Origin: Escherichia coli
Lineage (GTDB): Bacteria > Pseudomonadota > Gammaproteobacteria > Enterobacterales > Enterobacteriaceae
Assembly (NCBI RefSeq): GCF_001677475.2
Contig: NZ_CP015229.1
Reading direction: 5' to 3' (one strand)
Length of the DNA: 64,000 bases
Shown here in pieces: positions 30,127-34,361 of the stretch. The position numbers were made by a program, and so were the translations under genes. The notes under the pieces were generated by a model that did no database searches, had not been told where the DNA came from, and saw nothing but the letters and a program-made list of their open reading frames with translations. Every line of letters starts with the position of its first letter. Positions within the stretch are counted from its first letter, which is position 1.

Positions 30127-32537
30127 TTGCACGTTGGTTCTGGCGCGAATGGCGCTCGCCGTCGCTATTAATTGTCTGGCTGGCGCTAAGCCTGGCGGTG
30201 GCCTGCGTGCTGGCGCTGGGCAATATCAGCGATCGCATGGAGAAGGGCTTAAGCCAGCAAAGCCGGGAGTTTATGGCGGGCGATCGGGCGTTGCGCAGTT
30301 CACGCGAAGTGCCGCAAGCGTGGCTGGAGGAAGCGCAAAAGCGCGGCCTGAAAGTCGGCAAGCAGCTGACTTTCGCCACAATGACCTTTGCAGGCGACAC
30401 ACCGCAGCTGGCGAACGTCAAGGCGGTGGATGATATCTACCCGATGTATGGCGATCTGCAAACTAATCCCCCAGGCCTGAAACCGCAGGCGGGCAGCGTA
30501 TTGCTGGCCCCACGCCTGATGGCACTGCTTAACCTGAAAACGGGCGACACTATTGACGTGGGCGATGCCACCTTGCGGATTGCCGGAGAAGTGATTCAGG
30601 AGCCGGATTCCGGTTTTAATCCCTTCCAGATGGCTCCGCGTCTGATGATGAATCTGGCGGATGTCGATAAAACCGGAGCCGTGCAGCCGGGAAGTCGGGT
30701 CACCTGGCGCTATAAATTCGGCGGCAGCGAGAACCAGCTCGACGGCTATGAGAAATGGCTGTTACCTCAGCTTAAACCCGAACAACGCTGGTACGGTCTG
30801 GAACAGGACGAAGGCGCGCTGGGGCGATCGATGGAACGCTCGCAGCAGTTCCTGCTGCTTTCGGCGCTTCTGACCTTGCTGCTGGCAGTGGCAGCGGTGG
30901 CTGTGGCGATGAATCATTACTGTCGCAGTCGCTACGATCTGGTGGCGATCCTCAAAACGCTGGGGGCAGGGCGAGCGCAACTGCGTAAGCTAATCGTCGG
31001 TCAGTGGTTGATGGTGCTGACGCTTTCAGCCGTTACCGGTGGGGCGATAGGTCTGTTGTTCGAAAACGTGTTGATGGTGCTGCTCAAGCCCGTTCTGCCT
31101 GCTGCACTACCGCCAGCCAGCCTCTGGCCGTGGCTGTGGGCGCTCGGCACCATGACGGTCATCTCGCTGCTGGTGGGGCTACGACCGTACCGCTTGTTGC
31201 TGGCAACGCAGCCTTTACGCGTATTACGTAATGATGTGGTAGCGAACGTCTGGCCGCTGAAGTTTTATCTGCCGATTGTCAGTGTGGTGGTTGTGCTGCT
31301 GCTCGCCGGATTAATGGGTGGCAGTATGCTGCTCTGGGCGGTGCTGGCGGGCGCGGTAGTGCTGGCTTTGCTGTGCGGTGTGCTGGGCTGGATGCTGCTT
31401 AATGTATTACGCAGCATGACGCTAAAATCGCTACCTCTGCGTCTGGCAGTCAGCCGCCTGTTACGTCAGCCGTGGTCAACGTTAAGCCAGCTTTCGGCAT
31501 TTTCGCTCTCCTTTATGCTGCTGGCACTGCTGCTGGTGTTGCGTGGCGATCTGCTCGACCGCTGGCAACAGCAGCTACCGCCAGAAAGCCCGAACTACTT
31601 TTTAATCAACATCGCAACAGAACAGGTTACACCGCTAAAAGCGTTCCTTGCGGAACATCAGATAGTCCCGGAATCGTTTTATCCGGTAGTGCGGGCGCGG
31701 CTGACGGCGATTAACGGCAAGCCGACAGAAGGCAATGAAGATGAGGCGCTCAACCGCGAACTCAACCTCACCTGGCAAAATACGCGGCCCGATCATAACC
31801 CGATTGTCGCCGGTAACTGGCCGCCAAAAGCTGATGAAGTGTCGATGGAAGAGGGGCTGGCGAAACGCTTAAACGTTACCCTCGGCGATACCGTGACTTT
31901 TATGGGCGATACCCAGGAGTTCCGCGCTAAAGTGACCAGCCTGCGCAAAGTGGACTGGGAAAGTCTGCGGCCTAATTTCTATTTTATTTTCCCGGAAGGG
32001 GCATTAGACGGGCAACCGCAGAGCTGGCTTACCAGTTTCCGCTGGGAGAATGGCAACGGCATGTTGACGCAACTCAACCGCCAGTTCCCGACCATTAGCC
32101 TGTTAGACATTGGCGCGATTTTAAAACAGGTCGGTCAGGTGCTGGAGCAGGTAAGTCGGGCGCTGGAAGTGATGGTGGTGCTGGTCACCGCCTGCGGTAT
32201 GTTGCTGTTGCTGGCGCAGGTGCAGGTGGGAATGCGTCAGCGCCATCAGGAGCTGGTGGTGTGGCGCACTCTCGGTGCGGGCAAAAAACTGCTGCGCACC
32301 ACGTTGTGGTGTGAGTTCGCCATGCTCGGGTTTGTTTCTGGCCTGGTGGCCGCAATTGGTGCGGAAACGGCGCTGGCAGTGTTGCAGGCGAAAGTGTTTG
32401 ATTTCCCGTGGGAGCCAGACTGGCGATTGTGGATTGTTCTGCCGTGCAGCGGTGCGCTGCTGCTGTCGCTTTGCGGCGGATGGCTGGGCGCGCGACTGGT
32501 TAAGGGTAAGGCGCTGTTCAGGCAGTTTGCGGGATGA
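30123..32537 (+). CDS. ybbP: FtsX-like ABC transporter permease YbbP
   Basis: 804 aa; two FtsX-type TM bundles separated by large periplasmic domains; 4-bp overlap with ybbA. Confidence 0.9.
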   Translation: MIARWFWREWRSPSLLIVWLALSLAVACVLALGNISDRMEKGLSQQSREFMAGDRALRSSREVPQAWLEEAQKRGLKVGKQLTFATMTFAGDTPQLANVKAVDDIYPMYGDLQTNPPGLKPQAGSVLLAPRLMALLNLKTGDTIDVGDATLRIAGEVIQEPDSGFNPFQMAPRLMMNLADVDKTGAVQPGSRVTWRYKFGGSENQLDGYEKWLLPQLKPEQRWYGLEQDEGALGRSMERSQQFLLLSALLTLLLAVAAVAVAMNHYCRSRYDLVAILKTLGAGRAQLRKLIVGQWLMVLTLSAVTGGAIGLLFENVLMVLLKPVLPAALPPASLWPWLWALGTMTVISLLVGLRPYRLLLATQPLRVLRNDVVANVWPLKFYLPIVSVVVVLLLAGLMGGSMLLWAVLAGAVVLALLCGVLGWMLLNVLRSMTLKSLPLRLAVSRLLRQPWSTLSQLSAFSLSFMLLALLLVLRGDLLDRWQQQLPPESPNYFLINIATEQVTPLKAFLAEHQIVPESFYPVVRARLTAINGKPTEGNEDEALNRELNLTWQNTRPDHNPIVAGNWPPKADEVSMEEGLAKRLNVTLGDTVTFMGDTQEFRAKVTSLRKVDWESLRPNFYFIFPEGALDGQPQSWLTSFRWENGNGMLTQLNRQFPTISLLDIGAILKQVGQVLEQVSRALEVMVVLVTACGMLLLLAQVQVGMRQRHQELVVWRTLGAGKKLLRTTLWCEFAMLGFVSGLVAAIGAETALAVLQAKVFDFPWEPDWRLWIVLPCSGALLLSLCGGWLGARLVKGKALFRQFAG

Positions 32538-32554
32538 TGACAGGCGTTAGATTG

Positions 32555-32660
<106 letters not shown>

Positions 32661-32685
32661 GTGCATTTTGGCAATAAATATGAAA

Positions 32686-32741
32686 CCAACTGTCATGTCG
32701 GTTTTTTTAAAGGCCGAAGGTGGTAAACCTTCGGCCTTAGC
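32686..32741. terminator. Terminator module of repeat copy 1: stem CCAAC/GTCGG plus T-tract and adjacent GGCCGAAGG...CCTTCGGCC hairpin, immediately 3' of the minus-strand peptide ORF
   Basis: Palindromes read from sequence; the first hairpin is a one-mismatch copy of the terminator at 33162-33190. Confidence 0.5.
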
Positions 32742-32754
32742 TACGTTTCCTCAG

Positions 32755-32838
32755 TTATTCAATAAACTGACGGATCAGTTCCAGCAGCGCGATTAGCGCC
32801 TTAAGAACGATGAGAACTTTATCGAGAAAAGTTTTCAT
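32755..32838 (-). CDS. Candidate type I toxin: 27-aa hydrophobic single-helix peptide MKTFLDKVLIVLKALIALLELIRQFIE (DinQ/TisB-like)
   Basis: Hand-translated from the minus strand; not in the supplied ORF track. SD AAGGGAG 6 nt upstream lies inside the perfect palindrome CTCCCTTAAGGGAG (32845-32858); an in-frame upstream ATG at 32908-32910 would give 51 aa. Resembles E. coli DinQ (ALIALLELIR core) as I recall that sequence. Confidence 0.6.
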   Translation of the reverse strand: MKTFLDKVLIVLKALIALLELIRQFIE

Positions 32839-33063
32839 CCGTTGCTCCCTTAAGGGAGAAAGACAATCACAGCTTACCCTTACGTTGCCTGTAACTATGA
32901 TTTTCTTCATGTGCTAGATGAGGACTGCCTCTCTCCAAATTAGAGCACCAGAATCAGCACCACCTGTATCCTGACCAGGACTTAAAAGTACTTTTCCGCA
33001 CTGCGGTAATCCCTTGAGGCAGTATCACTACTAGCGTCGGGATTGTATCGCCAGCATAGCTGT

Positions 33064-33092
33064 TTGAATATGTAGGCATCCTGACTTATAAT
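33064..33092 (+). promoter_or_regulatory. Sigma70-type promoter TTGAAT-17 bp-TATAAT driving the candidate antisense sRNA
   Basis: -35 TTGAAT at 33064-33069, -10 TATAAT at 33087-33092, predicted start near 33099. Confidence 0.55.
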
Positions 33093-33098
33093 TCACTT

Positions 33099-33190
33099 GC
33101 TAGATGAGGACTGTTTCATTTCTGCCCGGAACCACCAAGTCTTGGGCGGAAAAAAAATAAAAAAACCGACTGTCATGTCGGTTTTTTTAT
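33099..33190 (+). ncRNA. Candidate ~90-nt antitoxin sRNA (AgrB-like), trans-complementary to the toxin mRNA leader
   Basis: Bounded by the promoter above and the intrinsic terminator AAAAAAACCGACTGTCATGTCGGTTTTTTT (33162-33190). Its 5' end GCTAGATGAGGACTG (33099-33113) is an exact direct repeat of 32913-32927, so the RNA is complementary to the minus-strand toxin leader. Confidence 0.5.
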
Positions 33191-33251
33191 ATCTGTATTC
33201 TGGTGCAACCATTCTGTTCTCACGACAATCGCCGTTTCAGAATACCGCCCA

Positions 33252-34361
<1,110 letters not shown>

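Follow-up and report, generated by a model that had tools for sequence, protein, structure and literature searches.

A probable second chromosomal DinQ/AgrB-type toxin-antitoxin module in the ybbP-mnmH gap of Escherichia coli

We analyzed a window of 64,000 nucleotides from Escherichia coli (contig NZ_CP015229.1 of assembly GCF_001677475.2; all coordinates refer to this whole stretch). In the gap between the genes ybbP and mnmH (32540-33203), the minus strand carries an open reading frame (ORF) for a small hydrophobic peptide with a long leader, and the plus strand carries, divergently from it, a candidate small RNA (sRNA) gene. The original prediction, made from the sequence letters, had placed here an unannotated DinQ/TisB-like type I toxin with a trans-acting antisense sRNA, arranged as in dinQ-agrAB although away from arsR-gor. 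Its building blocks were recovered: a 27-aa minus-strand ORF, a Shine-Dalgarno (SD) sequence in a 5-bp hairpin, a directly repeated leader element, a plus-strand promoter, an sRNA terminator, and an in-frame ATG beside the pairing site. The likeness to DinQ and AgrB also holds, while the likeness to TisB and the lack of annotation do not.

The toxin coding sequence (CDS; 32755-32838, minus strand), identified as an ORF and by its translation, encodes the 27-aa peptide MKTFLDKVLIVLKALIALLELIRQFIE (grand average of hydropathy, GRAVY, 1.23). The NCBIfam model NF041472 (toxin_DinQ) matches it with 40.9 bits (cutoff 30, E 1.8e-10), and the DqlB model NF041473 yields 24.5 bits, which is under its cutoff of 35; no other toxin profile models match the peptide. 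With K-12 DinQ it shares 15 of the 24 overlapping residues. The TisB models gave no match at E up to 10, Rfam gave no IstR match at E up to 1, and a LexA box is missing, as detailed below.

An in-frame ATG at 32908-32910 lies upstream of the toxin start and would extend the minus-strand ORF to 51 aa. This frame is open, and over-extended 51-aa versions have been deposited at NCBI as DinQ; still, we find it hardly credible that the longer form is the true product, as some of these records have it. The upstream ATG lacks an SD sequence and directly adjoins the sRNA target, and the DinQ profile covers only residues 29-50 of the 51-aa form. Spurious longer N-termini are, moreover, frequent in the annotation of Dql peptides (Kristiansen 2016, PMC5066626). 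By contrast, in a six-way alignment of family loci, which includes Serratia, Pantoea, and plasmid loci, a motif comprised of the SD hairpin, ACGG, and the start codon sits at the 27-aa start in all six. The -10 box, the mRNA 5' end, and the target region are conserved in this alignment as well. Because of these conserved motifs, we consider the 27-aa start to be the real one.

The putative -10 box of the toxin, TACAAT (33042-33047, minus strand), aligns with the -10 box of K-12 dinQ and of four further family loci. Transcription would start at ~33035, producing an mRNA of ~330 nt with a 5' untranslated region (UTR) of ~197 nt. It would end at a terminator hairpin (32710-32738, minus strand) whose arms, AAGGCCGAAGGU...ACCUUCGGCCUU, form a 12-bp perfect inverted repeat at the same position as the K-12 dinQ terminator. 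In a pairwise alignment, the region is homologous to K-12 dinQ from the promoter through the terminator, the leader being homologous over its full length.

The promoter scan of the plus strand yielded TTGAAT-17-TATAAT at 33064-33092, which agrees with the consensus at 10 of 12 positions and corresponds in position to the agrA and agrB promoters in the alignment. Downstream of it, the AgrB-like sRNA of ~91 nt (33099-33190, plus strand) has a 5' seed, an internal stem-loop with the loop CCACCAA, and an intrinsic terminator. The predicted limits of the latter, 33162-33190, could be refined to 33157-33190 (plus strand), with a 14-bp stem followed by a T run. The Rfam model of AgrB (RF02891) matches positions 33100-33190 of the plus strand with 50.3 bits (gathering score 40), and the match spans the full model. 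In addition, the sRNA aligns over its full length with both agrA and agrB of K-12, including the CCACCAA loop and the terminator, and a consensus fold is common to ten family sRNAs. Given the distance from the -10 box and the alignment to agrB, the sRNA most likely starts at 33099/33100.

The toxin and sRNA promoters are arranged back-to-back and divergently (33042-33092), with the presumed starts ~64 bp apart. Their -35 regions on the opposite strands, TTCAAA and TTGAAT, overlap, and Serratia oryzae also has TTCAAA at the same position.

The sRNA target is located in the toxin 5' UTR (32912-32937, minus strand); its perfect core occupies 32912-32927, and a G·U-rich extension up to 32937 overlaps element 2 of the leader (see below). 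At the DNA level, the complementarity is seen as a direct repeat of 32906-32927 at 33092-33113, with 20 of 22 positions matching, including an exact 16-mer, TGCTAGATGAGGACTG. This 16-mer is found at those two places only in 64 kb, the chance expectation being 0.03, and none of 100 shuffles had two copies. The predicted perfect pairing of a ~90-nt RNA with the leader is thus real in part: the pairing exists, but it is perfect over 14-16 nt and not over the whole sRNA. Since the DNA repeat begins a few bases before the likely sRNA start, only 14-15 nt of perfect complement are transcribed. Counting four G·U pairs and one mismatch, the helix extends to ~24 bp, and the local duplex has an energy of -35 to -40 kcal/mol, matched in 0 of 1000 shuffles of the sRNA 5' end (mean -16.6). 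The distance from the end of the target to the start codon is 75 nt, as in K-12; across nine family loci (the window, K-12, MS20653, three plasmids, two Serratia, and Pantoea stewartii) this distance is 72-78 nt.

Relative to AgrB, the sRNA has four differences within nucleotides 1-14 (TTAGATAAGAACTC vs. CTAGATGAGGACTG), and each of them is complemented in the leader (GAGTTCTTATCTAA vs. CAGTCCTCATCTAG). When all sRNAs and leaders of the nine loci were cross-paired, the cognate duplex was the most stable of its row in every case. Alternatively, the sRNA might mainly act elsewhere, on canonical dinQ mRNA or on unrelated targets, with the adjacent toxin being incidental. Two observations point that way: alleles with the toxin start deleted, described below, keep the promoter, seed, and terminator of the sRNA, and the window sRNA pairs with the MS20653-type dinQ leader at -49.4, compared to -50.8 with its cognate leader. 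However, the longest perfect match of the window sRNA to any non-cognate leader is 6-7 nt, as opposed to 14-16 nt for the cognate one, and its pairing with the canonical dinQ leader of Escherichia sp. E1V33, a genome that has both loci, is weak (-37.4). Furthermore, AgrA of K-12 matches dinQ about as imperfectly (-47.2) and fails to repress it in vivo (PMC5066626). We therefore think it very unlikely that the sRNA has its main target elsewhere.

The seed of this same AgrA, reported to be inactive on K-12 dinQ, fits the dinQ leader allele of other lineages, such as MS20653. The latter has a single agr gene with an AgrA-type seed beside dinQ (-59.4, vs. -47.2 kcal/mol on K-12 dinQ). AgrA may be a relic of an alternative allele rather than a dead copy of AgrB. 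In E1V33, seed and target have co-varied to yet another, third allele. Such a natural series of co-varying alleles could be of use in studies of type I antitoxin specificity.

The toxin leader contains the same kind of alternative pairings as that of dinQ. The SD sequence, GGGAG, lies 6 nt before the toxin ATG and forms the 3' arm of the palindrome CTCCCTTAAGGGAG (32845-32858, minus strand), which folds into the hairpin CUCCCUUAAGGGAG. This SD-sequestering hairpin corresponds to elements 3:4 of the dinQ model and shows co-varying stem positions among six family members. Element 3, the anti-SD strand (32855-32868, minus strand), has two alternative partners, the SD (element 4) and element 2 in the target region. 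Element 1, GCUAGUAGUGAUACUGCCUC, is the 5' end of the toxin mRNA (33016-33035, minus strand); by pairing with the target region, it would keep the full-length transcript locked. The contact is at the 3' edge of the target, where GUUAG/CUAAC of K-12 has changed by co-variation to GCUAG/CUAGC. The leader can form each of the mutually exclusive pairings 1:2, 2:3, and 3:4, at computed energies equal to or better than those in K-12. The 1:2 duplex, which is also seen in the minimum free energy (MFE) fold of the full leader, has -27.9 kcal/mol (-26.0 in K-12); the 2:3 duplex, formed by mRNA positions 101-114 and 169-182, has -22.2 kcal/mol (-19.3 in K-12); and the 3:4 pairing has -10.2 kcal/mol (-9.7 in K-12).

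In K-12, the dinQ leader has been described as four elements engaged in mutually exclusive pairings (Kristiansen 2016, PMC5066626). In the full-length +1 mRNA, elements 1:2 and 3:4 are paired and the SD is shut, while in the processed +44 form elements 2:3 are paired and the SD is open; AgrB covers element 2, recloses the SD hairpin, and triggers cleavage by RNase III (PMC5066626). Peptide toxicity or membrane depolarization, rescue by the sRNA, 5' processing to an active mRNA, and cleavage of the duplex by RNase III have been demonstrated only for K-12 DinQ (PMC3567139, PMC5066626) and for DqlB of pOXA-48 (PMC12365149). Since all three pairings are found in the window at energies equal to or better than in K-12, we infer the same switch here. 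Transcription and its start sites, processing, toxicity, and repression are likewise inferences for this locus. The minus-strand mRNA would encode a single-helix membrane peptide of 27 aa, and the divergent plus-strand promoter would give the AgrB-like sRNA. In the full-length mRNA, element 1 would hold element 2, leaving element 3 free to form the CUCCC/GGGAG hairpin, which would shut the SD and prevent translation. Processing of the 5' end would release element 2 to pair with element 3, so that the SD would open. The single-stranded 5' end of the sRNA would then bind the target overlapping element 2, the SD hairpin would stay closed, and the sRNA-mRNA duplex would probably be marked for RNase III. 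Family membership, the architecture, and the complementarity with its compensatory changes are established by the sequence, and the ybbP-mnmH module is very probably a second chromosomal member of the DinQ/AgrB (dinQ-dql) family of type I toxin-antitoxin systems.

The module was found in 1332 of 5426 complete E. coli genomes, in all cases in the chromosome; its placement between ybbP and mnmH was read from the feature table of one carrier record. Canonical dinQ was matched in 5415 of the 5426 genomes, and among the matches listed, each carrier had two matching places. Outside E. coli, the module occupies the same site in Escherichia sp. E1V33, with 99% identity, and canonical dinQ is present there too. 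In K-12 and O157:H7, the same gap is filled by a rearrangement hotspot (RHS) element, which in K-12 is rhsD. Homology of the window to these two genomes breaks off precisely at the stop codon of ybbP; for O157:H7, it is regained near 33203. The gap has two alternative contents, either an RHS element or repetitive extragenic palindromic (REP) elements together with the DinQ-family module. About a quarter of E. coli strains thus have a second toxin of the DinQ type and a dedicated antitoxin, which is relevant for work on DinQ in strains other than K-12, such as studies of SOS toxicity, persistence, or knock-outs.

We also considered a plasmid origin of the module and rejected it, as no true plasmid carries the module at high identity. 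Three near-identical PLSDB records, of 1.2-4.9 Mb, are evidently chromosomes filed as plasmids. More distant relatives from the family, at 60-80% identity, are present on ~1670 plasmids, most of them conjugative. Scanning a single genome of each species for a 20-nt coding motif returned 70 matches, of which ~60 were chance matches in unrelated GC-rich genomes; eight true DinQ-family loci were used.

Several results weigh against a working toxin-antitoxin pair at this locus. Firstly, ~180 of 1314 carriers (~14%) have a 108-bp deletion between the repeats GATGAGA and GATGAGG, corresponding approximately to 32817-32924 in the window. It removes the toxin start and first codons, the SD hairpin, and the sRNA target, and leaves the sRNA promoter, seed, and terminator intact, producing an orphan antitoxin allele. 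As these carriers have lost the toxin start, the toxin is dispensable. Secondly, the perfect complementarity of 14-16 nt is the shortest among the compared loci, apart from 11 nt on plasmid p1356d, whereas K-12 and the dqlB plasmids have 15-23 nt. Calculated over the first 40 nt, the cognate duplex of the window (-50.8) is the weakest of the cognate pairs and differs little from the pairings of the same sRNA with the leaders of S. oryzae (-50.2) and MS20653. Given the short perfect stretch and a cognate energy barely better than that of the cross-pairings, the distal half of the duplex has decayed while the seed has stayed perfect. Thirdly, MFE and SD-accessibility folding did not show the SD opening in the 5'-truncated leader compared to the full-length one; the same calculation also fails for K-12 dinQ, which is activated by processing experimentally, and we therefore give this result no weight. 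Finally, we found no expression or toxicity data specific to the ybbP-mnmH locus.

The short duplex and the deletion could also be read as signs of a decaying, non-functional DinQ-family remnant, either silent or with the toxin no longer controlled by the sRNA nor in need of such control, which persists as a neutral element. The absence of the module from three quarters of E. coli genomes fits with that, as does an IS200C insertion inside the module in one genome (NZ_CM129848.1, 3473689-3474896). However, the toxin ORF is intact and all regulatory elements are kept, including two promoters, two terminators, the SD hairpin, and elements 1-4, and the seed and target have been mutually compensated relative to canonical dinQ. 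In addition, the segment with the start codon, SD, and target is kept in 1135 genomes, and in 1130 of these it is at least 99% identical, which could partly be due to recent common ancestry. Hence, we consider it unlikely that the module is a relic.

To characterize the regulation of the toxin, we searched for LexA boxes. The pattern CTGT-N8-ACAG with at most one mismatch does not occur in 32500-33300. At the position of the K-12 LexA box (TACTGTATGATTATCCAGTT), which covers the -10 box, Escherichia sp. E1V33 has TACTGTGTGATTATCCAGTT and the window has CTGGCGATACAATCCCGACG. Another candidate, CTGTATCCTGACCAGG at 32966-32981, was rejected, as it has three mismatches in the ACAG half-site, is located inside the transcribed region, and failed the one-mismatch search. 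With no LexA box, expression of the toxin is probably not under SOS control, and the product name "damage-inducible" is probably a misnomer for the ybbP-mnmH paralogue, whose promoter lacks this box.

Going one step further, the module could be a functional, SOS-independent paralogue of DinQ whose antitoxin, owing to a re-coded seed, leaves the canonical dinQ mRNA of the same cell alone. This proposal is tentative, and we hold it with somewhat more doubt than confidence. If it is true, carriers have two insulated circuits that answer different signals, and the toxin-deleted alleles retaining the sRNA may be on the way to becoming an orphan regulatory RNA or an anti-addiction element.

Contrary to the original prediction, the locus is not unannotated. 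At the ybbP-mnmH site in other genomes, RefSeq has a CDS named dinQ with the product "damage-inducible type I toxin DinQ", and NCBI catalogues a protein identical to the 27-aa sequence as "MULTISPECIES: damage-inducible type I toxin DinQ", present on at least 1000 contigs. The sRNA gene has no annotation in the one RefSeq record that we inspected, although the Rfam model detects it. The dql family has been described as "widespread in Enterobacteriaceae", with "some strains" holding dql genes and dinQ (Kristiansen 2016, PMC5066626), and DqlB-AgrB of pOXA-48 was validated in 2025, including compensatory seed mutants (PMC12365149). Full-text searches, which did not cover the supplements of Kristiansen 2016 and T1TAdb, found no paper treating the ybbP-mnmH locus explicitly. 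The family, the mechanism, and this peptide are already known, and the module is a catalogued member of a known family. What remains is of value for annotation, though it would come as no surprise to a specialist: a missing LexA box, an antitoxin gene without annotation, a short and re-coded seed, alleles deleted for the toxin start, and an RHS element as the alternative content of the gap. In particular, the "damage-inducible" product name is probably being propagated to a paralogue without a LexA box.

The rest of the gap contains several further features. Downstream of ybbP there are two REP-type palindromes (32545-32660), with partial Rfam matches to naRNA4 and ES036, both below the gathering scores. 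A second, slightly degraded copy of the sRNA terminator (32683-32709, plus strand) matches 33163-33189 at 26 of 27 positions, forming a direct repeat with a 480-bp spacing. It is located just past the toxin terminator, scores as terminator-like on the minus strand, and together with the first copy brackets the module. This 27-nt bracketing repeat may be a remnant of a neighboring unit or a trace of the arrival of the module. The Rfam matches to STnc370, RNAI, rimP, mir-509, and others in the region were dismissed, as they are below the gathering scores and located on the terminators.

Among the closest known systems is dinQ-agrAB of K-12 (Weel-Sneve 2013, PMC3567139; PMC5066626). Both encode a 27-aa hydrophobic peptide with the shared core IVL.ALIALLELIR, and the K-12 5' UTR, at ~195 nt, shares the SD hairpin and all four pairing elements. 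In both, a divergent AgrB-type sRNA pairs by its 5' end 75 nt upstream of the start codon, and the sRNA gene directly repeats a part of the leader DNA. Unlike K-12 dinQ, which lies between gor and arsR, the window module is located between ybbP and mnmH; it has one sRNA gene instead of two, lacks a LexA box, and starts with ATG rather than GTG. The termini of the peptide, MKTFLDK... and ...RQFIE, differ from those of K-12 DinQ. Finally, the seed and target have been re-coded, and the perfect duplex is 14-16 nt compared to 23 nt in K-12.

The nearest relatives at the DNA level are chromosomal loci of Serratia oryzae and Serratia sp. H1w, with blastn identity of 75-76% over ~300 nt, compared to 68-69% for canonical dinQ loci. 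As its DNA is closer to the Serratia loci than to canonical E. coli dinQ, the module appears to be a separate lineage of the family and not a recent duplicate of dinQ. The Serratia peptides, VKTLIDKVLIVLKALVALLELIRQFID and METFIDKVLIVLKALVALLELIRRFIDR, belong to the same subtype, KT(L/F)IDKVLIVLKALVALLELIR(Q/R)FID, and both loci have an AgrB-like sRNA divergently upstream, as in the window. In contrast to the window, they occur in other genomic contexts, and their sRNAs form long, near-perfect duplexes with the leaders (-59 to -69 kcal/mol).

The dql genes dqlA and dqlB (Kristiansen 2016) and DqlB-AgrB of pOXA-48 (PMC12365149) belong to the same family and have the same leader architecture. 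The dql genes have a sigma-70 promoter without SOS control, as the window module probably does. The DqlB antitoxin is of the AgrB type, and its action by base pairing has been proven with compensatory mutants (PMC12365149); the window antitoxin is AgrB-type by sequence. The C-terminus of the window peptide, LELIRQFIE, resembles that of DqlB, LELIRQFID, although the peptide scores below the DqlB cutoff (24.5 vs. 35) and above that of DinQ. Unlike the window peptide, DqlB is 31 aa long, plasmid-borne, and part of an addiction module with a 35-nt duplex (PMC12365149).

The zorO-orzO system of E. coli O157:H7 belongs to a different sequence family; the Rfam model OrzO-P (RF02083) gives 24.1 bits, compared to the gathering score of 60, on the minus, that is, the wrong strand, and covers only the terminator. 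Still, zorO-orzO also encodes a small membrane toxin with a long self-inhibitory 5' UTR that is activated by processing, and its divergently transcribed, trans-acting sRNA pairs over ~18 nt in the UTR (PMC5397157), the same logic as in the window module.

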